Assembly (NCBI GenBank): GCA_020348445.1
Contig: CP070751.1
Location: 2,391,245-2,403,525 of the forward strand
Direction of reading: 5' to 3'
Source: Thermoplasmata archaeon
Lineage (GTDB): Archaea > Thermoplasmatota > Thermoplasmata > GCA-020350865
DNA: 12,281 nucleotides
The notes under the pieces were generated by a model that was given only the letters and a program-made list of their open reading frames with translations, ran no database searches and was not told where the DNA came from. Both the position numbers and the translations under genes were made by a program. Shown piece by piece: positions 1 to 12,281 of the stretch; position 1 is the first letter of the stretch; every line of letters starts with the position of its first letter.

Positions 1-915
1 AAGGAAACTGCACTTGACTATCTCGGAGATGGAGTAATTTCCATGTTCCATACCAGCGACAGGAACGGAAGAAGGATCAGGATGATGGACATACAGAAGC
101 TCAGGGGCTGTGAGATTCCGCATTCCAAATATCTTTATACCCTATTGGGTGGAAGGTTGATGGTTTTTGGACCGCAGCAGCTCAATGGTTCCACCTACAC
201 GGGTAAATGGCAACCGCTACCAGATCCAAATGAACTCATGGTTTCAACCGGGTGCAAGGAGCTTGATGAATTGCTGGGTGGGGGACTTAGAAGAGGCAGC
301 TTAAATATGATCGAGATAGGAGACAACATACAAACCGAACATGCAGATATTATCGAGCATTCCTTGGTTTACAATTTCGCATCTAAGAATCGGGGAGTTG
401 TGTGGATACCTGCAAAAAAGGCTACAAGTAAAACAGTCAAAGAAGCGCTCAATCCCTATCTCAAGGATCACGCATTGGAGGATAATGTTCGGATTTACGA
501 GAAGTACGGGGAGGGCGGCGCAGAAGGATTGTTCCATCATATCGAAGGAAAGGATGTGAGCCAGGACCTGGAATGGAGGACAGCTAAATACGAACTATCT
601 AAATCTGATTCCCCTTTGCTGCTTTTAGCTGGTTTCGATACCATGGAGTCAATATATCCCACAGGTAATCTTGTTGAAGATCTATCAGATGTCATGATGT
701 TCATAAGACGGATGGGAGACATCTTCGTAGGCATAACCACACCTTCAACAATGTCAACACAGAGGCTCGCGGATCTAACTCGCACTCACATAAAGTTCGA
801 GAACATTGGCGGCACAACCGTTGTTTACTGTGAGAAACCACATACAGAGCTGTACGCCCTAGAGATTGCCTGCGAAAATGGATATCCAAAGGCTAAATTG
901 GCCCCGATATTGTAA
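1..915 (+). CDS. GvpD-like / RAD55-KaiC superfamily tandem RecA-fold protein, 5'-truncated by the window edge
   Basis: Frame 1 is open from base 1 (KETALDYLGDGVISMF...RRIRMMDIQKLRG, typical end of a KaiC/RAD55 domain), so the track start at 43 is internal. A second RecA-like domain begins STGCKELDELLGGGLRRGS but lacks a GxxGxGKT Walker A. The C-terminus (HIKFENIGGTTVVYCEKPHTELY...GYPKAKLAPIL) resembles archaeal GvpD homologues. TAA at 913-915. Confidence 0.7.
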   Translation, partial: KETALDYLGDGVISMFHTSDRNGRRIRMMDIQKLRGCEIPHSKYLYTLLGGRLMVFGPQQLNGSTYTGKWQPLPDPNELMVSTGCKELDELLGGGLRRGSLNMIEIGDNIQTEHADIIEHSLVYNFASKNRGVVWIPAKKATSKTVKEALNPYLKDHALEDNVRIYEKYGEGGAEGLFHHIEGKDVSQDLEWRTAKYELSKSDSPLLLLAGFDTMESIYPTGNLVEDLSDVMMFIRRMGDIFVGITTPSTMSTQRLADLTRTHIKFENIGGTTVVYCEKPHTELYALEIACENGYPKAKLAPIL

Positions 916-1009: not shown

Positions 1010-1852
1010 ATGGAGAAAAAAATTGACATGAATAAAATCGAGCTGGACAAAAGGAAGGGGCAGTATATTCTTTCTAATGAGGATGTTATAAAAAGGCAAG
1101 TGGACTATGCAGAACTTACAGGAAAAGAAACTGTTCTTGAAATAGGGCCCGGCCTTGGGGCATTAACCTTGAAACTAGCTGAGAGAGCAGATAGGGTTGT
1201 GGCCATAGAAAAGGATTATCGGCTGTATTCGCATCTCAAAAACAAAATCCCTCCCAATGTTGAACTCATAAATGCGGATGTCATGGACATTGACATTCCA
1301 AAATTCCAAGTTGTTGTGTCAAATCTTCCATATCAGATTTCTTCCCCTGTGACATTCAAGCTCTTAAACCTTGAGTTTAGCAGGGCCATATTGATGTACC
1401 AAAAGGAATTTGCACTGAGAATGATTGCTAATGCCGGGGATAAAAACTACTCCCGTCTTTCTGTAAATGTGTATTACAATGCAGAGTGTAAACTAATGGA
1501 ATTTGTATCAAGGGAAGCTTTTCGTCCAAAACCCAATGTAGACAGTGCAATAGTCAAATTGACCTTGCGCAGTCCGCCGTTTTCCGTGGTAAGCGAGAAT
1601 TGGTTTTTTAAAGTGGTAGAAGCGCTTTTTAGTCAGAGGAGAAAGAAGATCAAGAACTCCTTGGCAAGTCTGATTGCAAGCCAACTCGGAAATAAAGGGA
1701 TCGATGGTAAATCAGCTTTAAAATACATAATAAATGAACTGCCATTTAAAGATGAAAGGGTGGAGAGACTGAGTCCAAAGGAGATCGGAGAACTGGCAGA
1801 TTGCACTCTCTTGTCAATACAAAATATCGAAGAAAAAATCAAACCGACATGA
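1010..1852 (+). CDS. rsmA: 16S rRNA (adenine-N6,N6)-dimethyltransferase RsmA/KsgA/Dim1
   Basis: Family motifs in order: GQYIL (GQxFL-like), VLEIGPGLG (SAM binding), VAIEKD, NLPYQISS, LMYQKEFA, YSRLSV, FRPKPNVDSAIV, FSQRRKKIKN. The start could also be the ATG at 1028. Confidence 0.96.
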   Translation: MEKKIDMNKIELDKRKGQYILSNEDVIKRQVDYAELTGKETVLEIGPGLGALTLKLAERADRVVAIEKDYRLYSHLKNKIPPNVELINADVMDIDIPKFQVVVSNLPYQISSPVTFKLLNLEFSRAILMYQKEFALRMIANAGDKNYSRLSVNVYYNAECKLMEFVSREAFRPKPNVDSAIVKLTLRSPPFSVVSENWFFKVVEALFSQRRKKIKNSLASLIASQLGNKGIDGKSALKYIINELPFKDERVERLSPKEIGELADCTLLSIQNIEEKIKPT

Positions 1853-2313: not shown

Positions 2314-2510
2314 AAATTCCACCCCCTTTTCCCAGTAGTTGATAATCCGTCCGATTTTACATCTAGCACCCTCGAGATATCCCCATTTCTCAGGGCGATG
2401 GACATGGGTGTTCGACATTTTTCATTAAATTCATGTTGCTCCTTGTTCAGCCACCAAAGTCCATCCTCTCTTTCTAGAACACGTTCGTTAACACACCATA
2501 TTCTCTTCAT
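2310..2510 (-). CDS. Small hypothetical protein (66 aa), probably co-translated with the downstream wHTH gene
   Basis: Strong GGAGG SD (2523-2519) 8 nt before ATG 2510. Its TGA (2312-2310) overlaps the TTG at 2313 as TTGA. No family recognised. Confidence 0.5.
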   Translation of the reverse strand: MKRIWCVNERVLEREDGLWWLNKEQHEFNEKCRTPMSIALRNGDISRVLDVKSDGLSTTGKRGWNF

Positions 2511-2622
2511 CTCATGCTCCTCCCTTTTCTTCTTACCAGGTAGGTGTATTTATGGCAACTCCTTCGCGCTCTTTTGGAAATCATTGTGCCAATGTTCTCT
2601 TGATACTTACATAGAACCAAGA

Positions 2623-2663
2623 TATATAAAGCTTTCCAAATTTTATTGTAATCAGTGCAATAA
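2623..2663 (-). promoter_or_regulatory. Archaeal BRE/TATA promoter (minus strand) with an upstream imperfect palindrome
   Basis: The minus strand reads GGAAAGC-TTTATATA (2637-2623), a purine-rich BRE directly followed by a TATA box. TTATTGTA-N5-TGCAATAA (2643-2663, 7 of 8 arm positions pair) lies just upstream of the BRE. Confidence 0.55.
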
Positions 2664-2774
2664 TAAACTGTAAAAGCTACAACATGATATTGGAGGAATA
2701 GCATAGAGAAGCTAAAATTTTTCTTTTTGAAAAAACTGATTCATTTTACTAACGACTAAATGTTCTTTATACAG

Positions 2775-3041
2775 TTAAAATTTTCTCCATAAATCTGATA
2801 TTTTTTCGAACTCATTTACCAGGTGCTCAGTGTTGATTATATAATATTTAGATTTTTTATCCTCATGCGAAACCTCTACGACCCCAAGGTCAACAAGGTT
2901 CTCGATCCTCCTTTGGGCGGTTCTAAAGTTGAGTTCTGTTCCACCTATTATTTTAGCGAGGGTATGGCCCGTATGAGGATGAAGAAGTAGATAGTCAAGA
3001 ATTCTCGATTCAGGAATGTCACCAATTACATCTTTAAACAT
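2775..3041 (-). CDS. Small winged-helix (ArsR/MarR-like) DNA-binding protein, divergent from the first STAND ATPase
   Basis: 88 aa: ESRILDYLLLHP...TLAKIIGGTELNFRTAQRRIENLVDLGVV (HTH) plus wing KKSKYYIIN. GAGGGGAG SD lies upstream of ATG 3041. Confidence 0.85.
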   Translation of the reverse strand: MFKDVIGDIPESRILDYLLLHPHTGHTLAKIIGGTELNFRTAQRRIENLVDLGVVEVSHEDKKSKYYIINTEHLVNEFEKISDLWRKF

Positions 3042-3158
3042 ATTATTCTCCCTCTATGCCGTATAAATTGTAGGTTCATAGGCCTTTCGGTATGTTTTCG
3101 CCTATTTTAGGGTATTTTACGCAGCGATATCTTTATAGGTGAATAAATACTTTACTTA

Positions 3159-3205
3159 TTACTGTAAATTGAACAGTAAAGATTATAAATGATGTAATTA
3201 TTACA
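3159..3205 (+). promoter_or_regulatory. TATA box for the STAND ATPase gene, flanked by two palindromic operator-like sites
   Basis: TTACTGT-N7-ACAGTAA (3159-3179, perfect 7-bp arms), TTATAAAT (3183-3190) and TGTAAT-T-ATTACA (3193-3205). Confidence 0.5.
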
Positions 3206-3254
3206 CCAAAAAACCTTAGAAAGGGTTCAGTAGCAGAAGAAAACGAGGATATCA

Positions 3255-4676
3255 ATGACCACGAAAAGTCGCACAAAACACGAAAAGAAAAAGAAGATAG
3301 CAGGCAATCTCGCCTACAATATGGGACATATTCTTTATGTGGCCCAGCTTACTGGGGATCTGGAGAAGAAGAAATTGATCAGTTCCATGCCGAAGCATGA
3401 TCAAGAACGCTATGAGATAGCATTTGAAACCCTCCTCAGAGATGGCCTTTTAGTGCATGAAAAAAAGCGCGATATAAGCAATTATTCCCTTAATCCAGAA
3501 AAATTTGAATATACAAAGGAACTTATTCATCGCTTTGTCAGAGGAACAAGAGGTGAGATAAAAGTAAAACAGATAAAAAAGAATCCGTTTTTTCATAGGG
3601 GACCTATTAAAGATACTGAGCACTTTATCGGTCGTGAGAGCTTGATTTCCCACATCTTCGACAGATTGAGGCACACTGAAGATTGTTCAATAATTGGCCC
3701 AAGGGCAATAGGAAAAACCTCCCTCTTGCATTATATCTCCCATAATGAGGTGGTAAGAAAAAATCACTTGGATCCAAAAAAATACATTTTCGTATACTAC
3801 GACCTTCAAAGATTCGGTGAAAACACCAAAATCGAAGATTTCTATTATGAGATGTTTTCTCAAACATCGCAACAGGTACTTCACGGGGGATTGATTTCCG
3901 AGGGGGAGATAAAACAAATCAATGACGAGAATCCGAATGTCATCAAGGAGATCAACAAATCCCTTTTTGAGATGAGGGATCTGGAAGGGCTTATTGGTGC
4001 GCTTTCTGAAAGGGATTATAAAATTGTATACATGTTCGATGAATTCGAATCCATAGCCAATAATCCCACATTTGATTTCAGTTTCTACGGACAACTTCGG
4101 GCTCTTTCGGGTAATCCTGGGTTTCAGGTTGCATTCATAACCGCCTCCAAAAAAAGCATTTATGAGCTCACTTTCCAAGAGGATATAAAAACCTCACCGT
4201 TTTTCAGATACTTTGAGGATTTCAGGTTGGGGCCCATGAATCGTGAAGAAATCAGGGGATTCTTCCGACTGGCTGCAAAAAATGGGGTGATTTTCTCAAG
4301 TGATATGAGAAATTTGATAGAGAAATGGAGTGGCGGCCATCCCTTTATAGTTCAACTTTCCTGTGATTATTTCTTCAATTTGGTAATGAATGGGAATAAA
4401 TTAAAACCTGAAGATGGAGAAAAACATCTTGATATATTCTTAAAACGGCATAAAAAACATTTCGCATATTTTTGGAAACAGGTGGATAAAAGAGAACAGA
4501 CATGTCTGTGGAGGTTGGCCTCCGGTAAATCCCCAGGTAGGGATTGCAAGGGTGTTTTAGAGAACTTGGAGGACAGTTATCTGGTTAACAAGGAAAAGAA
4601 GAAATATAGGATTTTCTCGGCGGCATTTGAAAAGTTCGTAAAAAATATGCCATCTTCAAAATCCGAATTAATATAG
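3255..4676 (+). CDS. STAND-like P-loop ATPase (AAA_35/ATPase_2-type) with an N-terminal wHTH-like domain
   Basis: NPFFHRGPI...FIGRE pre-P-loop motif (from 3582), Walker A GPRAIGKTS (3696-3722), Walker B IVYMFDEFE (4023-4049), GxP motif WSGGHPFIVQLSC, and a C-terminal winged helix (LENLEDSYLV...YRIFSAAFEKFV). The N-terminal ~105 aa contain FETLLRDGLL...NYSLNP, a helix-plus-wing pattern. GAGG SD upstream of ATG 3255. Confidence 0.88.
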   Translation: MTTKSRTKHEKKKKIAGNLAYNMGHILYVAQLTGDLEKKKLISSMPKHDQERYEIAFETLLRDGLLVHEKKRDISNYSLNPEKFEYTKELIHRFVRGTRGEIKVKQIKKNPFFHRGPIKDTEHFIGRESLISHIFDRLRHTEDCSIIGPRAIGKTSLLHYISHNEVVRKNHLDPKKYIFVYYDLQRFGENTKIEDFYYEMFSQTSQQVLHGGLISEGEIKQINDENPNVIKEINKSLFEMRDLEGLIGALSERDYKIVYMFDEFESIANNPTFDFSFYGQLRALSGNPGFQVAFITASKKSIYELTFQEDIKTSPFFRYFEDFRLGPMNREEIRGFFRLAAKNGVIFSSDMRNLIEKWSGGHPFIVQLSCDYFFNLVMNGNKLKPEDGEKHLDIFLKRHKKHFAYFWKQVDKREQTCLWRLASGKSPGRDCKGVLENLEDSYLVNKEKKKYRIFSAAFEKFVKNMPSSKSELI

Positions 4677-4687
4677 AGGTTATGTGC

Positions 4688-4831
4688 ATGTTCAGAAAAA
4701 AAAGACACTGGGGTGAAAAGATTATAATAACATGGGATACATATTTATACACTGGAATAAAAAAGCCCCTTTCCATTAAAGATACTGAATTGGCTTCCCA
4801 AATAGGTATATGGGGGTTTTTATATCGCTGA
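4688..4831 (+). CDS. 47-aa ORF (MFRKKRHWGEKIIITWDTYLYTGIKKPLSIKDTELASQIGIWGFLYR), likely the N-terminal part of the next gene across a frameshift
   Basis: Not in the ORF track (under 60 aa). The GAGGT SD (4676-4680) overlaps the ATPase stop and sits 7 nt before ATG 4688. The ORF overlaps the open downstream frame at 4806-4831. Confidence 0.55.
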   Translation: MFRKKRHWGEKIIITWDTYLYTGIKKPLSIKDTELASQIGIWGFLYR

Positions 4832-4865
4832 TGACATAGGAGAAGAAGAGAAGAATCCTGAGTCC

Positions 4866-5465
4866 TTGGGACCCGTGGATGACTTGATTTTGGACTACTG
4901 GTCCTCCATAATTGAAATTGATAATGATAATAACGGTCATGTTCATCAGACTCTGAAGGCAAGGGTCAAGGTTGGTAGGCTTCGAGAAAAAATGATATCA
5001 ATACTATCAGATAAACCCATAGGGCTCGAAAACATGGGCCTAGTTATTAACGATTTAAATACAGGTGAGGAGCTCATTCCCGAGGTTCTAATCGATGATC
5101 CTAAATATAAGTGGATCAAGATCCCGTTTAAATACCCCATAGAAAAGGACGAGGAATTCGGATTTGAAGCGAGGTATTTGCAGCCCTTGACTTATAAAGC
5201 CATTGGTGAGGATTATTACAGTTATACCAGCAGGCATCATTGCAAAGATATCCTGATAAAGATCAAATTTCCAAGAAATGTTCATATCAAAGATACAGAG
5301 GGGTCCAATATCAGAACGAGTGGAGGCATTATCCTAGATATTTCTGAGGGCAATAAACCGACAATATCCATAGAAGAAGGTAGAGCTTGCATAATATGGG
5401 CTATTAAATACGGGAAAATAGGATACACCTATACTGTCCGATGGAGAACTGAAAAAGAATCATAG
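4866..5465 (+). CDS. Uncharacterised all-beta (two beta-sandwich-like) protein; true start probably at 4688 via a +1 frameshift
   Basis: Beta-strand-rich sequence with PIEKDEEFGFEARY, YYSYTSRHHCKDILIKIKFP and IIWAIKYGKIGYTYTVRW patterns. The frame is open from 4806, but the first start codons (TTG 4866, GTG 4875) lack a well-spaced SD. Confidence 0.8.
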   Translation: MGPVDDLILDYWSSIIEIDNDNNGHVHQTLKARVKVGRLREKMISILSDKPIGLENMGLVINDLNTGEELIPEVLIDDPKYKWIKIPFKYPIEKDEEFGFEARYLQPLTYKAIGEDYYSYTSRHHCKDILIKIKFPRNVHIKDTEGSNIRTSGGIILDISEGNKPTISIEEGRACIIWAIKYGKIGYTYTVRWRTEKES

Positions 5466-5566
5466 CCTAATTTACATTAGTGAATCTAACGAACCCCAGT
5501 ATCGGATTTTATATGACTTCTATAGGCACGATTCAGCTGAATGGTTATTTGCTAAGGTCTACCGTT

Positions 5567-5866
5567 CTAACCGCTGCCAGCGCCGCCACCGTCTACTCCA
5601 CTTCCAGCGCCACCACCATCGCCTCCGCTACCAGCGCCACCGCCATTGTACGTACCAGGATCAATGCCGCTACCTGCACCGCCACCGTCTACTCCACTAC
5701 CTGCACCGCCACCATCAACACCGCTACCAGCACCTCCCCCTGCAAACACTTGGCCTGAAGCAAAAAATAGTACCAATAAACCGACTGCCATCAAAATAGC
5801 GGTTTTTCGGGCACCTTCACACCCACCACCAGCTTCGCTCCCCAGGGATTGCCCCCTATCTTTCAT
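5567..5866 (-). CDS. Small secreted or membrane-anchored glycine-rich repeat peptide (99 aa)
   Basis: GGAGG SD 9 nt before ATG 5866. A hydrophobic segment RK-TAILMAVGLLVLFFASG and a V-F-A signal peptidase I-type site are followed by a 57-aa tail with 32 Gly. Repeat units differ mainly at synonymous third positions in this frame, which supports real coding. Confidence 0.85.
   Translation of the reverse strand: MKDRGQSLGSEAGGGCEGARKTAILMAVGLLVLFFASGQVFAGGGAGSGVDGGGAGSGVDGGGAGSGIDPGTYNGGGAGSGGDGGGAGSGVDGGGAGSG
5570..5740 (-). repeat. 27-bp coding tandem repeat, GGGAGSG(V/I/G)D x5 plus a truncated 6th unit, interrupted once by PGTYN
   Basis: Units on the minus strand include GGG GGA GGT GCT GGT AGC GGT GTT GAT / GGT GGC GGT GCA GGT AGT GGA GTA GAC / GGT GGC GGT GCA GGT AGC GGC ATT GAT. 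The region is a local GC-rich island in an AT-rich window. Confidence 0.95.
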
Positions 5867-6187
5867 GCTTTCTTGCCTCCAACACCTGTTTTGGATATAG
5901 TCTGTAAGACATAAACTTTATCCAAACTGAATATATATGTAACTAAAGTTATTTAAACATTAGGAAACGACATATAGGATGAGGCCAAAAACTTTCGGAA
6001 AGAACCTAAAACCATAATTACGATATTAATCGAAGGTTTATAACACGTATACCTATTTCATTGCCTTATTACCCAGATATGAATTATCGAATGCTACTTA
6101 AAATCATTGAAAAATATTTAAGGTTGAAATCAATAATCCAGGGCAGAACGGGAATTCGCCTGATAAGTCTTGGTAAACAGTGGTACC

Positions 6188-9100
6188 ATGATTCGCAATA
6201 ACAAAACAGGGATTCATAATGGAAGGTTAGAGGAAGACCCTCATCATTCTCAAAAGAAGATTAACGATCTAAGCACACTCACCAAAATGGTTCATAGTAT
6301 TGATCCCAATGTAAGAAAAGAAGCGGCAAATTCTCTTGCTGAGGACGAGCAATTTCATAAAGAATATTTTGACCTATCAAAACGTTTAATTAGAGATGAA
6401 AAGGAGGAGGTATGGAAGGCTTCATGCAAAGCCATGGGTAGATTCGCAGTAAGAGACACTGATGCATATGACTATATAAAGAACCTCGTGGCCGATGACT
6501 ACTTTTGGGTGCAGAAGCGGGGAATAAATGCCTTGGAAGAATTTTCAAAACACGATCAAAGGGGTGTTAGACTACTTGCGCAGCTCGTTTCAACCGGACG
6601 AAAGGAAGCGGCTGAAGAGGCGGTGTTGGTATTAGGAAGTGTCGCGACAATAAATGAAGACGCTTTTAAAATATTAACTGGGATATTAAGAAGTAGAGAG
6701 GAACTTACGATTCAACCTGCCATTTATTCCATGGGATTCATAGCAAAGAAGAACGATGGAGCCTTAAATGAGCTTTCACCCTTCCTTTCTGAGGAGAAGG
6801 ATTTTATTCGGTTATGGACTGCCTCAGCCATTGGAGAGGCAGCCCGTGAAAACGATGGAGCCTTTGTACTTTTTAAAAGTCTCGCAGAGGAAAAGGATGT
6901 TTATCTCCGCCGCGGCTTCTCCAAGGGTTTGGCGAACCTCTCAAAAAGCCGGCCCAATGAAGCCCTAAAATTGATAAAAAGGGCAGTTGAAGATAGCGAT
7001 AGATATGTTAGGACGAACGCTGCCCAGGCGTTGGGCTCGCTTTCCTCCAACAGCAAAGGGGTCTTTGGTGAGATCCAAAGGTTACTCAACCATGATAAAG
7101 GAGATGTTAGGAGAGGAGCTGCCGAGGCTCTGTTGGCTGTAGCAGGCGATATGCCCAAGGATATACTGCCTCTTTTAAGGGAACTGGTTAGAGACGAGGA
7201 TTATTATCTTAGAAGCATCGTAGCATTTGCTTCTGCAAAAATTACTGATACATCTCCAAAAGAAGCTTTAGATCTTTTTAAAATACTGGTGGCAGATAAA
7301 GACGAATATGTCCGAAGGGATGTTGCATTAGCGTTACAAAGAATACCATTTCATGTTGTTGAAGATGTATATCCATTTTTGACACAGCTTTTAGAGGATC
7401 GGGAAACAATAGTAAGAAGGGAGACAATAAGATCACTTAAGGTAGTGGCAAGAGTAAAAACCGATGAGGTACTTCTTTTAATGACTTCATACATTGATGA
7501 TTTCGATGAAGGGGTACGAATAAATGCTGCGGAGGTTTTGGGTGAGATAGCAGGAATCAGCGCAGAAAAAGCGTTCAATCATCTTAGAAAGCTCGCCCAC
7601 GATGAATCACCGAAGGTTTTAGAAAAGGTAGCAATGTCTCTTGAAAAGGTCTTTGATTCAAAACCAGATATGCTATTTGATTGGATCCGTGTCCTACAAA
7701 AGGATGCAATAAATCCCGAAGTTTTTAAATTGGTCTCCAAATGGGCAAAAAACGAGGAAATAGCCTTGGTAATAGATACCTATTCAATGCTGATGGATAA
7801 TTTGGATGAGTCCAACGTTGAGGTAAGATTGAGTAAAACTTTGGACGTTCTTGAGAATATAAATAGATTGAATAACGCAGATGAGATCAGAAATATTTTT
7901 AAAACATTCCTCTTTGGGATCAGGTGTAGGAATATAAATGACATCGCTTTGATAAAATTCGATTCAGAACCCATCAAGTCCATATATGTATCTTCATCAG
8001 GAATGGATTCATGGATCTATAGGGTGATGGAAGTAATCCCGGAGATGGCGTTGAGGTACAAGCAAATCGAAAGTTTAGGTGACAAGCACATATATCTCGG
8101 AAAAATGCTGGGTATAATCGATTCAATTGTTGAAGATCTTCAAAAGGAAAATTATCCTGAGACCAAAATTCTAACACCCGTTCTCCACAGCTGGCGGGGT
8201 GTGATATCCCTTACCATGGATGGTCTGAAAGGAAGATCGAATATCAGGGTAACGCTTAGGACCAGAAAGGTACTTCCTCTTGATACACTAACGTTATTAC
8301 TTGGAGTGGAGAATACGGGAGAAAGCCTGGCAGAGAACTTGATTGCTGAAATCATGCCCTCTGATTCCTATAAGCTTATAGATAAAACCAAGAAAATAGA
8401 TGTGTTGGCCCATGACGCAAAAGATGCCGTTGAATTTCGAATAAGACCAACTGCAAACCGGGATTTTAGGGTGAAATTCAACATTTCTTTCGATGATTTC
8501 GAGATGAAAGGCAAATCCATTTATTTTGCTGATATGGTGAGTTTTATCGATGTCCCCGAGGAATTTAGGTACATACCCAATCCTTATATCACAGGGGGCC
8601 CAATAAAACCCAGTTCAATGGACATGTTCTTTGGTAGGGATGATGTTTTCGATTTTATTAAAAACAACCTCAGTAGCATATCTCAAAAAAATGTCCTTAT
8701 ACTTCAGGGCGAACGAAGAACAGGTAAAACTTCAATACTCTATCAGGTTCCCAAGGTGCTGGGTCCGGATCATATCTGTGTATTTTTAGATGGCCAAGAG
8801 TTTGGGAAGGCGACCTTGGAATATCTTTTCTACAGGATATCTAAACTTATCACAAGTGCCTGTGCCCAGAAGGGAATCATCATTGATTCACCTCCACGAG
8901 AGGCGTTTGCAGATGACCCATGGTATGTCTTCAAGGATCAATTTATCGAGAATCTGAGCCGTGTTTTGGGAAATAGATACATAGTCATTCTTTTTGATGA
9001 GTTTGAGGCATTGGAGTATGCCGTAAAAAACGGCACTTTGGATGATGCTATCTTTGAGTATATAAGAAATCTGATGCAGCACGAGGAGAGAATGGTCTTC

Positions 9101-9739
9101 ATATTCGCAGGTTTGCACAGACTGGAAGAGATGATGCAGGATTATTGGGGTGTGATGTTCAATATCGCACTGTATTGGAAGATCAGTTTTTTGGTGGAAA
9201 AGGAGGCCAGGAAATTGATTATCAAGCCTGTTGAAGGTTACAATATGTTGTATGACGATCTGGCCATTGAAAAGATCATAAGGGCAACTGCATGTCATCC
9301 CTATTTTCTACAGCTTCTTTGTCGTTTTTTGGTGAACAGACATAATGAGATGAAGAGAAACTACATAACAGTTCAGGACGTGAACGAAGAACTCAGCAAT
9401 GTAATAGAGAAGGCAAAACCCCATTTCAACTACGTTTGGGCACTGGCCTCACCACACGAGAAGTTGTTTTTAGCTATTTTACCCGAGATATTGAGGAAGA
9501 AGACCATTGCTACGATGACCGATATACTCAAGGAATGCCAGGAGAATAAGCTCGATATTCCAAGGGGAAAGGCGACATTTGCTCTAAGAAAACTCATCGT
9601 AAAGGATATATTTGAAAGTGTCCAGGATGGTGAACTCCACTATCGATTCAAGGTGGATTTCATTAGGATGTGGGTTGAGAAGCATCAGCCCTTGGAAAAG
9701 GTGATCGAGGAGTTCGGGGAGGAGCTGAGGGAGAGCTAA
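6188..9739 (+). CDS. Large HEAT-repeat + Ig-like + STAND-like ATPase (AAA_35/ATPase_2-type) protein
   Basis: About 14 HEAT-like repeats (~6290-7700; e.g. DSDRYVRTNAAQALG, DKDEYVRRDVALALQ, DFDEGVRINAAEVLG), then a helical linker. An Ig/CARDB-like segment (LLGVENTGESLAENL...VEFRIRP...VKFNISFDD, ~8240-8550) precedes NPYITGGPI...FFGRD (from 8579), Walker A GERRTGKTS (8708-8734), Walker B IVILFDEFE (8981-9007), TACHPYFLQLLC and a C-terminal winged helix. Start uncertain (TTG 6170, ATG 6188 or ATG 6287). Confidence 0.9.
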   Translation: MIRNNKTGIHNGRLEEDPHHSQKKINDLSTLTKMVHSIDPNVRKEAANSLAEDEQFHKEYFDLSKRLIRDEKEEVWKASCKAMGRFAVRDTDAYDYIKNLVADDYFWVQKRGINALEEFSKHDQRGVRLLAQLVSTGRKEAAEEAVLVLGSVATINEDAFKILTGILRSREELTIQPAIYSMGFIAKKNDGALNELSPFLSEEKDFIRLWTASAIGEAARENDGAFVLFKSLAEEKDVYLRRGFSKGLANLSKSRPNEALKLIKRAVEDSDRYVRTNAAQALGSLSSNSKGVFGEIQRLLNHDKGDVRRGAAEALLAVAGDMPKDILPLLRELVRDEDYYLRSIVAFASAKITDTSPKEALDLFKILVADKDEYVRRDVALALQRIPFHVVEDVYPFLTQLLEDRETIVRRETIRSLKVVARVKTDEVLLLMTSYIDDFDEGVRINAAEVLGEIAGISAEKAFNHLRKLAHDESPKVLEKVAMSLEKVFDSKPDMLFDWIRVLQKDAINPEVFKLVSKWAKNEEIALVIDTYSMLMDNLDESNVEVRLSKTLDVLENINRLNNADEIRNIFKTFLFGIRCRNINDIALIKFDSEPIKSIYVSSSGMDSWIYRVMEVIPEMALRYKQIESLGDKHIYLGKMLGIIDSIVEDLQKENYPETKILTPVLHSWRGVISLTMDGLKGRSNIRVTLRTRKVLPLDTLTLLLGVENTGESLAENLIAEIMPSDSYKLIDKTKKIDVLAHDAKDAVEFRIRPTANRDFRVKFNISFDDFEMKGKSIYFADMVSFIDVPEEFRYIPNPYITGGPIKPSSMDMFFGRDDVFDFIKNNLSSISQKNVLILQGERRTGKTSILYQVPKVLGPDHICVFLDGQEFGKATLEYLFYRISKLITSACAQKGIIIDSPPREAFADDPWYVFKDQFIENLSRVLGNRYIVILFDEFEALEYAVKNGTLDDAIFEYIRNLMQHEERMVFIFAGLHRLEEMMQDYWGVMFNIALYWKISFLVEKEARKLIIKPVEGYNMLYDDLAIEKIIRATACHPYFLQLLCRFLVNRHNEMKRNYITVQDVNEELSNVIEKAKPHFNYVWALASPHEKLFLAILPEILRKKTIATMTDILKECQENKLDIPRGKATFALRKLIVKDIFESVQDGELHYRFKVDFIRMWVEKHQPLEKVIEEFGEELRES

Positions 9740-9829
9740 AAGTTTTCAGTGGTTTTTAAACAACATAAATGCGTATATTATGCTAGTTGATATGTTAATA
9801 AGTACAAATAACCTTCTATAAAATATTTA

Positions 9830-9858
9830 TGTGGAACGTTCCACAAAACGTTTTTATA
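9830..9858 (+). promoter_or_regulatory. Perfect 16-bp palindrome immediately upstream of a TATA-like box
   Basis: TGTGGAACGTTCCACA (9830-9845) is its own reverse complement. It is followed by AAAACGTTTT (9845-9854) and TTTTTATA (9851-9858). Confidence 0.5.
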
Positions 9859-10116
9859 CATCACCTAGCAACTGTTATGCATTGGAAGGTATGTTGGGAA
9901 ACATTACCACTTGAGATGTGATGACGCCATCAAAAAATATAGAAAGGGCGAAGGTGATAAAAATGCAGGAGAGGAGGGATATTACCATGATATTCCATTT
10001 GAAACTTTCTAGAACTAGCCCTTTGATATTTTTGGGCTGTGATATGATAGGCGGTGAGGCGGGGTGGGGTATAAATACCAATAAAATCCCATGAATGGGA
10101 GGAGGTGATAAAGGAT

Positions 10117-10614
10117 ATGAGAAAATACATTGCGATACTTGGAACACTGTTAATCGCAACGATTCTATTGAGCGGCTCAGCAGTCGCTCAAAGGTGGCAT
10201 TATGTCGACATTGTTGATAGCCATACGAATTGTGAGAACGAAGATGATGCATGCGGTGTGCCAGATAATAAATACGCTACTGTTGGAACAAATTTCCCCT
10301 CACCAACACTTGGAAATCTAGTTCTCGATCTGAGTGAAGCTAATTTAATGGGCCCCAACCAAGATTTCACTGTATACCACCAGTCTAATACTAATGAGAC
10401 ATATTATATATCAGTAATAACCGATGATAAGACGGTAGAATCAACAGCTTGGCTTGGGTGGGATACTGAAAACCTCGTATTTACCACACCATCGAATGAA
10501 GGACTCTTGTGGCGCTATTTTAATATTGAGGGTGAGACAGGTGAAATTGAGTTTGGTGAACTCGAAGACATAATTTACGGACCAGAGATAAATGCAATCG
10601 GCTGGTATGGTTAG
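10117..10614 (+). CDS. Secreted protein with a probable galactose-binding-like (jelly-roll) domain
   Basis: Perfect GGAGGTGA SD (10101-10108) 8 nt before ATG 10117; the track's GTG 10105 lies inside the SD. Signal peptide MRKYIAILGTLLIATILLSGSAVA. The pattern ACGVPD..YA..G.LVLDL..GP..DFTVY..YYISV..D..RY.NI..GPEINAI resembles jelly-roll cell-surface domains (fold is inference). Confidence 0.8.
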   Translation: MRKYIAILGTLLIATILLSGSAVAQRWHYVDIVDSHTNCENEDDACGVPDNKYATVGTNFPSPTLGNLVLDLSEANLMGPNQDFTVYHQSNTNETYYISVITDDKTVESTAWLGWDTENLVFTTPSNEGLLWRYFNIEGETGEIEFGELEDIIYGPEINAIGWYG

Positions 10615-10786
10615 AGATATCCAAATGTTTAAGGAAACCAAGAACACAGTTATCGGGAGTATTGCAATCACTTTATCAATCTTCTCATTTATTTTTTACA
10701 CTCGGTAAATTAATAAACCTTCCAAATCAATATCATATATGTAATCAAAGAGATATTGTGCAAAATTATGGAAAAGGTGTTAACAA

Positions 10787-12281
10787 ATGGATAACTCCTT
10801 TAGGGGTGAACATAGTGTTAAATCGTTAAAACGTAAGTCTGTTATAGTTAGTATGCTTTTTATAATAGGAATTACTATGTTAATCGTTCCCGATAAAAAT
10901 CTGATATCAACCTCTCATGGTGCAACAATTTATGTACCTACTGATTATCCAACGATACAGGATGCGATAAACGCGGCCAAGGATGGCGATACGGTCTTTG
11001 TCTTTAGCGGGACATATTATGAAAATGTGGTGGTAAATAAGGTCATTGACCTGATAGGCCAGGATAAGGAAACCACAATAATTGATGGTGATTGGATTGG
11101 AGATGTTATCTATGTGGGTGCAAATTGGGTGAACATCACAGGATTTTCCGTCACTAAAAGCGGTGGGAATTCTGCGGATGCGGGAATAGAATTTAACAGT
11201 GTCCAGAACTGTAGACTCATAAACAACAATGTTTCATTGGGCAGACACGGCATCTATATCTATAATTCCAACTTTATAAACATAATAGGCAACAACATAA
11301 CAATGACCTCCGGTCGTGGGATTTTTCTCGATTTTTCCAGCGAAAACAACATTATAGGTAATAATGCTTCAGACACCAAAGTTAGTGACGGCATCGCCAT
11401 CCGGAGTTCGTCGAGCAACACGATAGAGGACAACATCGTCTCGAATAACGAGAAGTATGGCATCACCCTCTATCACTCCAATGGAAACAACATCATAAAC
11501 AACACCTGCAACTCGAACTTTTATGATGGAATCGACGTGAGTTATTCATCAGGCAATATGATCGCCAACAACACCTGCTCAAACAATAGTCACAGTGGTA
11601 TAAATATCGAGGATCACAGTCCGGACAATGACATCATAGGAAATACTGTTTCCTCAAACCTCGAGCATGGCATCGTTAACCATGCGAATTCGGATGGAGT
11701 TAAAATCATCAGCAACAATGTTTCGAACAATGAGTTCATAGGCATCGTAGTTAGCTACTCATTAAATAACATCATAACAGACAACACTGTTTATTTGAAC
11801 AATTGGAGCGGCATTGCTACCTATTTCGACTCGGGCAACAACACAATCTCAAACAACAATATATTATCAAATAATGATAGTGGCATTTATGTTGAGTCAT
11901 CATCAAACAACACCATCACTGGTAATAATATTTCTAACAATATGGACGGCATCTATATTCTCGGTTCATCAAACACAATTTCAAGCAACAATGTCTCATC
12001 AAATAATCGGGATGGTATCATAATTTTGGGCACATCAAATATAATCTCAAGCAACGATGCCTCATCGAACGGTGAGAACGGCATCCGTCTTGGCGGTTCA
12101 TCAAACACGATCACAGGCAACAATGCATATTCGAATAATAATAGCGGTATCCGCCTTGGTTCATCACAAAACAACAACATAATCGGCAATAATATATTAA
12201 ACAATTGGGACGGCATTGATTTATATTACGATTTAAACAACAATGTAACATACAATCATATATCATCGAATAATAGGGATG
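10787..12281 (+). CDS. NosD/CASH right-handed parallel beta-helix surface protein, 3'-truncated by the window edge
   Basis: Absent from the ORF track because there is no stop in the window. AGGTG SD 7 nt before ATG 10787. Translation: MDNSF...KRKSVIVSMLFIIGITMLIVP (signal/anchor), ATIYVPTDYPTIQDAINAAKDGDTVFVFSGTYYENVVVNK (typical beta-helix cap), then many GIxL..S..N.I..N.xS.N repeats. The frame stays open to base 12281. Confidence 0.92.
   Translation, partial: MDNSFRGEHSVKSLKRKSVIVSMLFIIGITMLIVPDKNLISTSHGATIYVPTDYPTIQDAINAAKDGDTVFVFSGTYYENVVVNKVIDLIGQDKETTIIDGDWIGDVIYVGANWVNITGFSVTKSGGNSADAGIEFNSVQNCRLINNNVSLGRHGIYIYNSNFINIIGNNITMTSGRGIFLDFSSENNIIGNNASDTKVSDGIAIRSSSSNTIEDNIVSNNEKYGITLYHSNGNNIINNTCNSNFYDGIDVSYSSGNMIANNTCSNNSHSGINIEDHSPDNDIIGNTVSSNLEHGIVNHANSDGVKIISNNVSNNEFIGIVVSYSLNNIITDNTVYLNNWSGIATYFDSGNNTISNNNILSNNDSGIYVESSSNNTITGNNISNNMDGIYILGSSNTISSNNVSSNNRDGIIILGTSNIISSNDASSNGENGIRLGGSSNTITGNNAYSNNNSGIRLGSSQNNNIIGNNILNNWDGIDLYYDLNNNVTYNHISSNNRD
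11963..12160 (+). repeat. Three 66-bp (22-aa) beta-helix repeat units with DNA-level similarity
   Basis: Units start at 11963 (GSSNTISSNNVSSNNRDGIIIL), 12029 (GTSNIISSNDASSNGENGIRLG) and 12095 (GSSNTITGNNAYSNNNSGIRLG). Shared DNA includes ggttcatcaaacac and tctcaagcaac/tttcaagcaac. Confidence 0.75.

Follow-up and report, generated by a model that had tools for sequence, protein, structure and literature searches.

In a 12,281-nt stretch of the genome of a sediment archaeon (Thermoplasmata; genome of 5.16 Mb on one contig), two genes for STAND NTPases, here called type A and type B, lie on the same strand 1.5 kb apart. This whole stretch is referred to below as the window, and positions are given in its coordinates. 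Between the two ATPase genes are those for a beta-sandwich protein (beta199) and a glycine-rich repeat peptide (Gly99), and a stand-alone winged-helix regulator (wHTH88) is encoded divergently from the type A gene. With moderate confidence, we read the locus as the archaeal version of a widespread two-subunit STAND relay, in which type B would be the sensor and type A the output subunit. The two ATPases belong to two sister STAND subfamilies, each with one copy in this genome, and comparison across phyla supports their being a functional pair rather than a chance cluster. A sequence-only reading had already singled out this locus; all five of its open reading frames (ORFs) were verified, as was the gene order that it gave, with two small genes sandwiched between ATPases within 6.5 kb.

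First, the two proteins are homologous and both appear equipped as ATPases. They align over ~320 residues (BLASTP E 3e-14, 24% identity; residues 110–418 of type A and 804–1101 of type B), and every motif of the family signature listed in the sequence-only reading is found in both. The signature begins with NPFFHRGPI...FIGR in type A and NPYITGGPI...FFGR in type B, and continues with Walker A (GPRAIGKTS and GERRTGKTS, respectively), Walker B (MFDEFE and LFDEFE) and a further motif (GGHPFIVQLSC and ACHPYFLQLLC). Signature positions are invariant or near-invariant in alignments of 37–38 relatives per type, and the Walker lysine and the Asp-Glu pair are either invariant or at least 92% conserved in each. 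Type A conserves K154 of Walker A, D262/E263 of Walker B and R282, the last in 38 of 38 proteins; in type B, G847, R850, G852, K853, D943 and E944 are invariant (37 of 37), and R966, the equivalent of R282, is arginine in 22 of 37; the two are candidate counterparts of the arginine (finger) conserved in both partners of the operon of Kaur et al. discussed below. Searches of Pfam, NCBIfam and PADLOC recognised no enzymatic domain in either ATPase, as the sequence-only reading had noted; NCBIfam returned nothing but HEAT-lyase look-alikes.

Judged from its AlphaFold2 (AF2) model, type A is a STAND-class P-loop NTPase, with the core, the helical domain, the winged helix and fold matches to solved STANDs. 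It scores 48.5 bits against Pfam nSTAND2 (PF20702; cut-off 24), a family that 37 of its 38 relatives also match. The model (predicted local distance difference test, pLDDT, 86.4) starts at its N-terminus with a winged helix and a long helix after it, continues with a P-loop core, and closes with a helical domain (helices at residues 330–408) that ends in a second winged helix (412–453). The N-terminal domain is modelled as a canonical winged helix-turn-helix (wHTH), with helices at 20–33, 38–44 and 47–62 and strands at 66–71 and 74–79. Foldseek returned PAB2304 (2qen) and SSO1545 (2fna) as the best structural matches (E 6e-10 and 3e-9; target TM 0.64 and 0.60), followed by Orc/Cdc6, the plant NLRs (nucleotide-binding leucine-rich repeat receptors) NRC4, Sr35 and ZAR1, CED-4 and Avs4.

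For type B, we infer STAND-class membership from homology: it has no match to nSTAND2, and scores 17 bits against nSTAND1 (below the threshold of 27.1) and 29 bits against AAA_22. Its N-terminal region matches HEAT_2 in four stretches (E 7e-43, 145 bits) and HEAT above threshold (63.7 bits). Of the HEAT-Ig-STAND architecture proposed from sequence alone, the HEAT and STAND parts were borne out, whereas the Ig-like domain before the NTPase corresponds only to a sub-threshold CARDB match that recurs in three independent type B proteins (E 0.069, 0.13 and 0.078); one type B protein has a HYDIN-like Ig match, also sub-threshold (E 0.0066). The ESM Atlas offered no usable match to the mid region of type B. 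The Atlas record of the protein begins at residue 40, so the gene more likely starts at ATG 6287.

Second, type A and type B are linked across phyla. The archaeon has exactly one gene of each type, the three other matches (~30 bits to either type) being much weaker paralogues, and the chance that two given genes in a genome of this size lie within 6.5 kb is ~0.0025. We assembled 77 loci, drawn from one genome per species, which were fetched with the type A alignment only, and scored all ORFs in them against both modules. Of the 19 loci that extend at least 5 kb to either side, 15 have a strong type B gene no more than 10 kb from type A; the overall count is 29 of 53. The two genes are co-oriented in 28 of these 29 pairs, with gaps of −480 to 2900 bp, and several Chloroflexota pairs overlap by 19–40 nt, which suggests translational coupling. 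Pairs occur in Thermoplasmatota, Chloroflexota, Spirochaetota, Glassbacteria, Gemmatimonadota and Bacteroidota, with weaker cases in Omnitrophota and Bacillota. The large ORFs that neighbour type A match the ATPase module of the window type B at E 1e-106 to 1e-40, compared with ~1e-15 for type A proteins, and match its helical/Ig mid region at E 1e-34 to 1e-11.

In an IQ-TREE phylogeny of 91 modules, which was a quick search whose fine branching is not to be relied on, types A and B are reciprocally monophyletic, with a Shimodaira–Hasegawa-like approximate likelihood ratio (SH-aLRT) support of 100. The same lineages group in the two halves of the tree, with archaeal A and B each beside Chloroflexota clades, as would be expected if the pair had been inherited together. 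The case that the sequence-only reading had set against itself was a chance cluster of genes whose homologues lie in unrelated neighbourhoods; the census instead finds type A and type B co-occurring, co-oriented and often overlapping in at least six phyla. Separately, one contig labelled ‘archaeon’ (L079, DATKXY010000148.1) carries an A/B pair that nests within Glassbacteria/Gemmatimonadota clades in both trees and is probably a mis-binned bacterial contig.

Third, the two subfamilies divide their accessory domains cleanly between them: when 37 type B and 38 type A proteins were scanned against Pfam, sensor-type domains that bind ligands or proteins are on type B, and output or effector domains are on type A. 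Type B proteins carry TPR (10–11), PEGA (5), GAF (4), HEAT (3) and FG-GAP (3) domains; type A proteins carry Pkinase (8), adenylate/guanylate cyclase (5), Trans_reg_C (5), CHAT (3), DUF835 (2), TIR (1), caspase (1) and EAD7 (1). Matches to ATPase_2 are found in 20 of the former and 11 of the latter. The nearest non-orthologous relatives of the window type A are proteins of ~448 aa in which the nSTAND2 module is followed by a C-terminal Trans_reg_C domain. In four loci (L041–L044), a type A gene with Trans_reg_C is followed by genes for secreted or sortase-anchored small proteins and then by a type B gene for ~1550 aa, with a signal peptide, an FG-GAP propeller, a transmembrane helix, a helical region, an Ig-like domain and the ATPase, a layout expected of a sensor and an output subunit. 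There and in L049, L055 and L091, a sensor-bearing STAND, often membrane-spanning, adjoins a paralogous STAND with a kinase, TIR, EAD7 or OmpR-type wHTH domain, and in the Chloroflexota loci L050, L059 and L060 one type B gene is followed by three type A genes with differing outputs. The domain split and the linkage, both known from comparative genomics, fit the sensor/helper arrangement suggested in the sequence-only reading; the particular roles that it assigned to the two ATPases stay predictions from sequence.

Two kinds of locus in this sample have further features. The Chloroflexota arrays (L050, L059, L060 and L066) contain a type A-like gene for ~300 aa, a type B gene (~1240 aa) and up to three type A genes, and most neighbouring genes in them overlap by ~20–40 nt; in L050, the type A protein scanned directly after type B is fused to CHAT and the last one to a cyclase. 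In two loci of other Thermoplasmata (L074:7847-10075 and L048:9377-11617), a type A nSTAND2 protein with a C-terminal DUF835 domain is encoded divergently from a gene for a protein of ~2000 aa, with no type B gene within 6–8 kb.

Paired STANDs that divide recognition from signalling are familiar from plants, in which one NLR recognises and a paralogous one signals (RGA5/RGA4 and the NRC network), and STAND switches coupled to DNA-binding domains are familiar from MalT and AfsR/SARP. By analogy, the archaeal relay would work as follows. The N-terminal HEAT solenoid of type B would bind a cytoplasmic ligand and release its NTPase. Type A, with its winged helix and nSTAND2 module, would then join type B in a mixed oligomer that depends on ATP and is built through the NTPase and winged-helix modules by which the two proteins are homologous. 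Brought together in this way, the N-terminal winged helices of type A would turn DNA binding on or off and, with it, transcription. Probably wHTH88 would set how much type A is made, acting through a palindrome in the intergenic region that their genes share, and beta199 and Gly99, which are lineage-specific and have promoter-like elements of their own, would most likely be local cargo or co-factors. Stable synteny beside housekeeping genes, together with the DNA-binding and cyclase outputs of relatives, favours signalling as the purpose of such a relay.

The regulatory elements behind these proposals lie in the gaps between the genes. All seven aligned orthologous wHTH88/type A intergenic regions keep an inverted repeat, ACTGTAAA-N4-ACAGTAAA, which immediately precedes a TATA-like TTATAAAT; the repeat has no other exact match in the window or in the whole 5.16-Mb genome. 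We tried it as a marker of a regulon and rejected it as such: the other promoters of the window have no second copy, and the genome has two sites with one mismatch, about the control level. In the type A/beta gap of L019, L020, L021, L031, L032 and L033, an AAAA-(T)ATATAA equivalent of AAAAGATTATAATAA is present, and the TTGAAAAATATTTAAGG block is conserved in the alignment of Gly99/type B intergenic regions from four loci. Because these conserved blocks resemble a TFB-recognition element (BRE) and TATA box, the beta and type B genes probably have their own promoters. The wHTH88 protein has sub-threshold Pfam matches to DUF7342, HTH_45 and HTH_20, and matches PADLOC PDC-M05A (E 3e-6) and the wHTH region of Csa3.

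Around the type A gene, a clade-specific core is well conserved. The order KsgA, HTH20, wHTH88, type A, beta, Gly99 is kept in G001, G002, G004 and L031–L034, with beta identity down to 57%, and wHTH88, type A, beta and Gly99 are intact in all eight orthologous loci, wHTH88 keeping its position and orientation throughout at 66–78% identity. Type B follows this core in G000, G001, L031 and L032, and G004, at a contig break, is consistent with the same order. Three of these genes, those for wHTH88, beta199 and Gly99, are limited to a single clade of genus rank; of 301 Thermoplasmata-class genomes, 4, all of one genus, have the beta gene, so the constant synteny of the core is indistinguishable from shared ancestry.

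Several observations weigh against the proposed relay. Type B is absent from 4 of the 19 well-flanked type A loci, solo type B genes occur (L117 and L118), and another Thermoplasmata metagenome-assembled genome has type A and type B on separate contigs (L074 and L108). Even within the archaeal clade, G002 has its type B orthologue on a contig of 43 kb, away from any type A gene, and flavodoxin and POR genes follow the core in place of type B in L033 and L034. With its wHTH88, beta and Gly99 genes limited to one clade and its HEAT gene not always adjacent, the five-gene unit of the sequence-only reading is weakened. Nor is the pair an operon in this clade, in which two genes with their own promoter-like elements, one of them on the opposite strand, intervene. 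The N-terminal domain of type A has no Pfam match, and its putative DNA binding is read from the predicted fold. Beyond the wHTH88/type A region, which has the only conserved operator-like palindrome, the promoters of beta, Gly99 and type B lack a copy of it, so that it defines no regulon; the control of nearby peptide or surface-protein genes that the sequence-only reading proposed gains no support from it. Finally, the TIR, CHAT and caspase outputs of bacterial type A proteins suggest conflict over ordinary regulation.

This last point belongs to the strongest alternative, which the sequence-only reading had also entertained and which we consider possible, if less probable than the proposed relay: a conflict or defence system in which type B would detect a protein of an invader and type A would carry out the response, by DNA binding or through beta199 and/or Gly99 as a non-enzymatic effector. 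The TIR, CHAT, caspase, EAD7 and kinase domains of bacterial type A proteins are typical conflict effectors, and Kaur et al. interpreted a related two-gene operon as directed against invaders (PMC8195603). Distant relatives of the beta protein are encoded among restriction-modification, HEPN, integrase and IS605 genes, some of them with N-terminal transmembrane helices, and the match of wHTH88 to PDC-M05A points in the same direction. However, domains that bind DNA or act as cyclases, and so fit a role in signalling, are common among the outputs of bacterial type A proteins; the locus has no enzymatic effector; and it has been passed on vertically in all relatives, next to the housekeeping genes KsgA and a GvpD-like gene and outside any variable island. 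Matches of the two ATPases to system models of PADLOC-DB 2.0 were weak or driven by HEAT repeats: type A matched only mad8 (E 0.002) and PDC-S01 (E 0.004) and type B only the HEAT-driven HEAT-ARM_XIII and OloA, and beta199 and Gly99 had no match. The PADLOC check, one of those that the sequence-only reading had envisaged, gave no significant match of the core proteins to a known defence system.

A second alternative, which we regard as unlikely, takes wHTH88, type A, beta and Gly99 as the functional core, in which type A would sense through beta199 and regulate Gly99, and type B would be a facultative add-on with a separate role. That the core is intact in all eight loci, even without type B nearby, speaks for it, as does a 38%-identical type A protein (P0072) whose gene has a divergent 87-aa gene upstream and a 233-aa gene downstream. 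DUF835 provides a further, thin link through the domain network between type A and the beta domain: nSTAND2-DUF835 fusions occur in other Thermoplasmata, and a DUF835-beta fusion also exists (P0162). Yet the four-gene core is known from one narrow clade, the linkage of type A to type B is far older and broader than its linkage to beta, and a search of all fetched loci with a hidden Markov model (HMM) found no beta homologue beside type A outside the clade.

The weakest alternative, that the two ATPases are ancient paralogues acting separately whose closeness is inherited synteny, can draw on the block from the GvpD-like gene to Gly99, which is syntenic in every close relative so that synteny alone is uninformative, on the separability of type B from the core, on the apparent promoter of each gene and on the restriction of beta to one genus, and is nevertheless improbable in view of the co-oriented, often overlapping A/B genes in at least six phyla, the parallel phylogenies, the complementary partition of sensor and output domains and the low probability of chance adjacency.

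The two small proteins between the ATPases are themselves unusual. The AF2 model of beta199 (pLDDT 88.8; predicted TM score, pTM, 0.84) is a 14-strand beta-sandwich, with fold likeness to the Ost1/ribophorin I luminal domain (VIA Z 11.6–11.8) and the M1-aminopeptidase N-domain (Z ~8.5). It has 37 invariant columns among 26 homologues, no Pfam match and no transmembrane segment, and is proposed to be cytoplasmic. A full HMMER search found ~30 distant relatives, with N-terminal transmembrane helices, an F-93-type winged helix or DUF835 (P0138–P0162; L125–L128), some of which adjoin restriction-modification, HEPN (HEPN_Swt1), integrase/IS605 or KaiC-like genes. A common wHTH domain of the type A N-terminus and a wHTH-beta fusion (P0139) was considered and is unsupported (BLASTP E 0.26). 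A conserved N-terminal peptide, GG.II..E..LGPVDDLILDYW, is encoded ahead of TTG 4866, which is the first canonical start codon in the beta frame, and translation may begin at a non-canonical ATC near 4824, or a G5 run may act as a Shine-Dalgarno-like site. Near this start (4806–4866), a conserved ATGGGGG lies out of frame. We also considered an ORF at 4688–4831 as a frameshifted part of the beta gene and rejected it: stops break it in relatives, and the conserved TATA-like element lies there. The ORF looks spurious and the region around it like a promoter and 5′ leader; one 261-aa beta homologue (P0010) reads through the equivalent region.

Gly99 contains a GGGCEG motif, a basic stretch, a hydrophobic helix (maximum KD19 hydrophobicity of 2.26, at residue 24) and GGGAGSGxD repeats with a 27-nt period; its gene converges with the beta gene and diverges from the type B gene. 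Orthologues in L019, L020, L021 and L031–L033 have the N-terminal GGGCEG, in some cases twice over, ahead of the hydrophobic helix, together with repeated GGG[AV]GSG or GGGVGTD with spacers that vary in length between species. By this conservation of its translated sequence Gly99 is a real gene, and it is predicted to encode a small membrane-anchored or secreted peptide.

How do these genes compare with known systems? Kaur, Iyer, Burroughs and Aravind (eLife 2021;10:e70394; PMC8195603, section 15, Fig. 6C) described a mobile two-gene operon, both products of which are nSTAND2-type STAND NTPases. In this mostly proteobacterial cassette, one partner, fused to GT4 or HEPN, has eroded NTP-binding motifs, and the two were predicted to form a toroidal hetero-multimer (PMC8195603). 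The description of the present system as ‘undescribed’ in the sequence-only reading is therefore too strong, a two-gene nSTAND2 operon with a predicted hetero-multimer being already in print (PMC8195603). The resemblance lies in two STAND NTPases of one broad family with wHTH domains, an upstream partner with a variable N-terminus (‘??+STAND+wHTH’) and an nSTAND2 partner with the output; type A passes the Pfam nSTAND2 threshold, and type B is a candidate counterpart of the ‘??+STAND+wHTH’ partner, a likeness drawn from its description. Neighbouring, co-directional genes for the two are the rule among the bacterial relatives, 28 of the 29 pairs sharing a strand; the window genes likewise share a strand but are 1.5 kb and two genes apart. 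Unlike the published operon, both partners here and nearly all relatives keep the Walker A lysine and the Walker B Asp-Glu, with no dead partner; the type B partner has defined sensor repeats and a putative Ig-like domain; the outputs are wHTH, kinase, cyclase, CHAT, TIR, caspase, EAD7 and DUF835; and the archaeal genes, with two others between them, are vertically inherited and not visibly mobile. GT4 and HEPN are not among the families listed by Pfam scans of the window proteins or of 75 relatives. A literature search for newer accounts of paired prokaryotic STANDs yielded only Kaur 2020, Kaur 2021 and a bacterial NLR preprint.

Other comparisons are of fold or of logic. PAB2304 and SSO1545, the best structural matches of type A, are stand-alone single ATPases of the MNS clade, with no sensor or output domains and with function and partner not known. 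The MNS clade of STAND NTPases, or Arch_ATPase (PF01637), is said to have been defined by Leipe et al. in 2004. The plant sensor/helper NLRs and MalT/AfsR are alike in working logic, and NRC4, Sr35 and ZAR1 are among the fold matches, but this is analogy and not membership: the NTPase here is of the MNS/nSTAND2 branch, not NB-ARC or MalT, and the sensor repeats of type B are N-terminal to the NTPase. What appears new, judged from the genes and their predicted products, is the combination of an archaeal host, a cytoplasmic location, HEAT repeats as the proposed sensor, a wHTH output at the N-terminus instead of the C-terminus, intact motif sets in both ATPases and an interrupted gene order.

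The features of the window are collected in Table 1. About 2 kb upstream of the cluster, the GvpD/KaiC-like ATPase gene is syntenic, and a KaiC-like gene also precedes the DUF835-beta fusion P0162, which may be coincidence. The 1-kb gap between type B and the NosD gene (9740–10786) holds only two overlapping ORFs on opposite strands (9875–10252, minus; 10105–10614, plus), which have no family match and are not conserved in relatives. An Rfam scan of the window found no RNA family, and a repeat search of 2400–6400 found the Gly-repeat array and chance pairs only. In L033, ~5 kb upstream of the cluster (L033:197-3550), a gene for an Arf/Ras-like small GTPase is followed by one for an 870-aa STAND with NB-ARC/ATPase_2/TPR matches, a second and unrelated STAND unit.

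Table 1. Features of the window, with positions, strand and the basis of assignment.
Feature	Position	Strand	Basis
GvpD/KaiC-like gene	1–915	+	
KsgA	1010–1852	+	
HTH_20 protein	1906–2418	−	
wHTH88 (P0001), 88-aa stand-alone winged-helix regulator, divergent from type A gene	2775–3041	−	
Operator-like inverted repeat, wHTH88/type A intergenic	3161–3180	no strand	sequence conservation
Type A STAND (P0002, 473 aa)	3255–4676	+	Pfam nSTAND2, AF2 model
Type A, N-terminal winged helix	~3303–3554		
Type A, nSTAND2-type NTPase	~3570–4484		
Type A, C-terminal winged helix	~4485–4649		
BRE/TATA-like element AAAAGATTATAATAA, type A/beta gap	4716–4730	+	read from sequence
beta199 (P0003, 199 aa)	4866–5465	+	AF2 model; frame open from 4806
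Gly99 (P0006, 99 aa)	5567–5866	−	translation, tandem repeats
BRE/TATA-like element TTGAAAAATATTTAAGG, upstream of type B gene	6107–6123	+	read from sequence
Type B STAND (P0005, 1189 aa; probable start 6287)	6170–9739	+	HEAT_2, AAA_22, homology
Type B, HEAT solenoid	~6287–7714		
Type B, helical linker	~7715–8239		
Type B, putative CARDB-like Ig domain	~8240–8554		
Type B, STAND NTPase	~8567–9469		
Type B, C-terminal winged-helix region	~9470–9709		
NosD/beta-helix surface protein	10787–12280	+	

The pairing of sensor and helper NLRs is central to thinking on plant immunity, and a prokaryotic two-STAND unit has so far only been predicted, in one proteobacterial branch and with a dead partner. 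The value of the present case is tempered, as the concept is already in print and the relay function is a prediction from comparative genomics. Even so, the linkage of two sister STANDs, both with intact ATPase motifs, extends over six or more phyla and into the Archaea, and sensors and outputs are cleanly split between the paralogues. Tentatively, type A and type B may be the halves of a prokaryote-wide modular ‘paired NLR’ relay, with swappable sensors (HEAT, TPR, GAF or membrane-spanning propellers) on B, swappable outputs (DNA-binding domains, kinase, cyclase, protease or TIR) on one or several A and both ATPases active, which in this archaeon would be wired to transcription and control the beta-sandwich protein and a secreted Gly-repeat peptide; if so, this would be the first archaeal sensor/helper STAND pair. 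The pair gives a concrete, testable model of a STAND switch relaying a signal to a separate output subunit, and its archaeal member, being simple and soluble, with one palindromic site besides its HEAT sensor and wHTH output, could lend itself to reconstitution in vitro.

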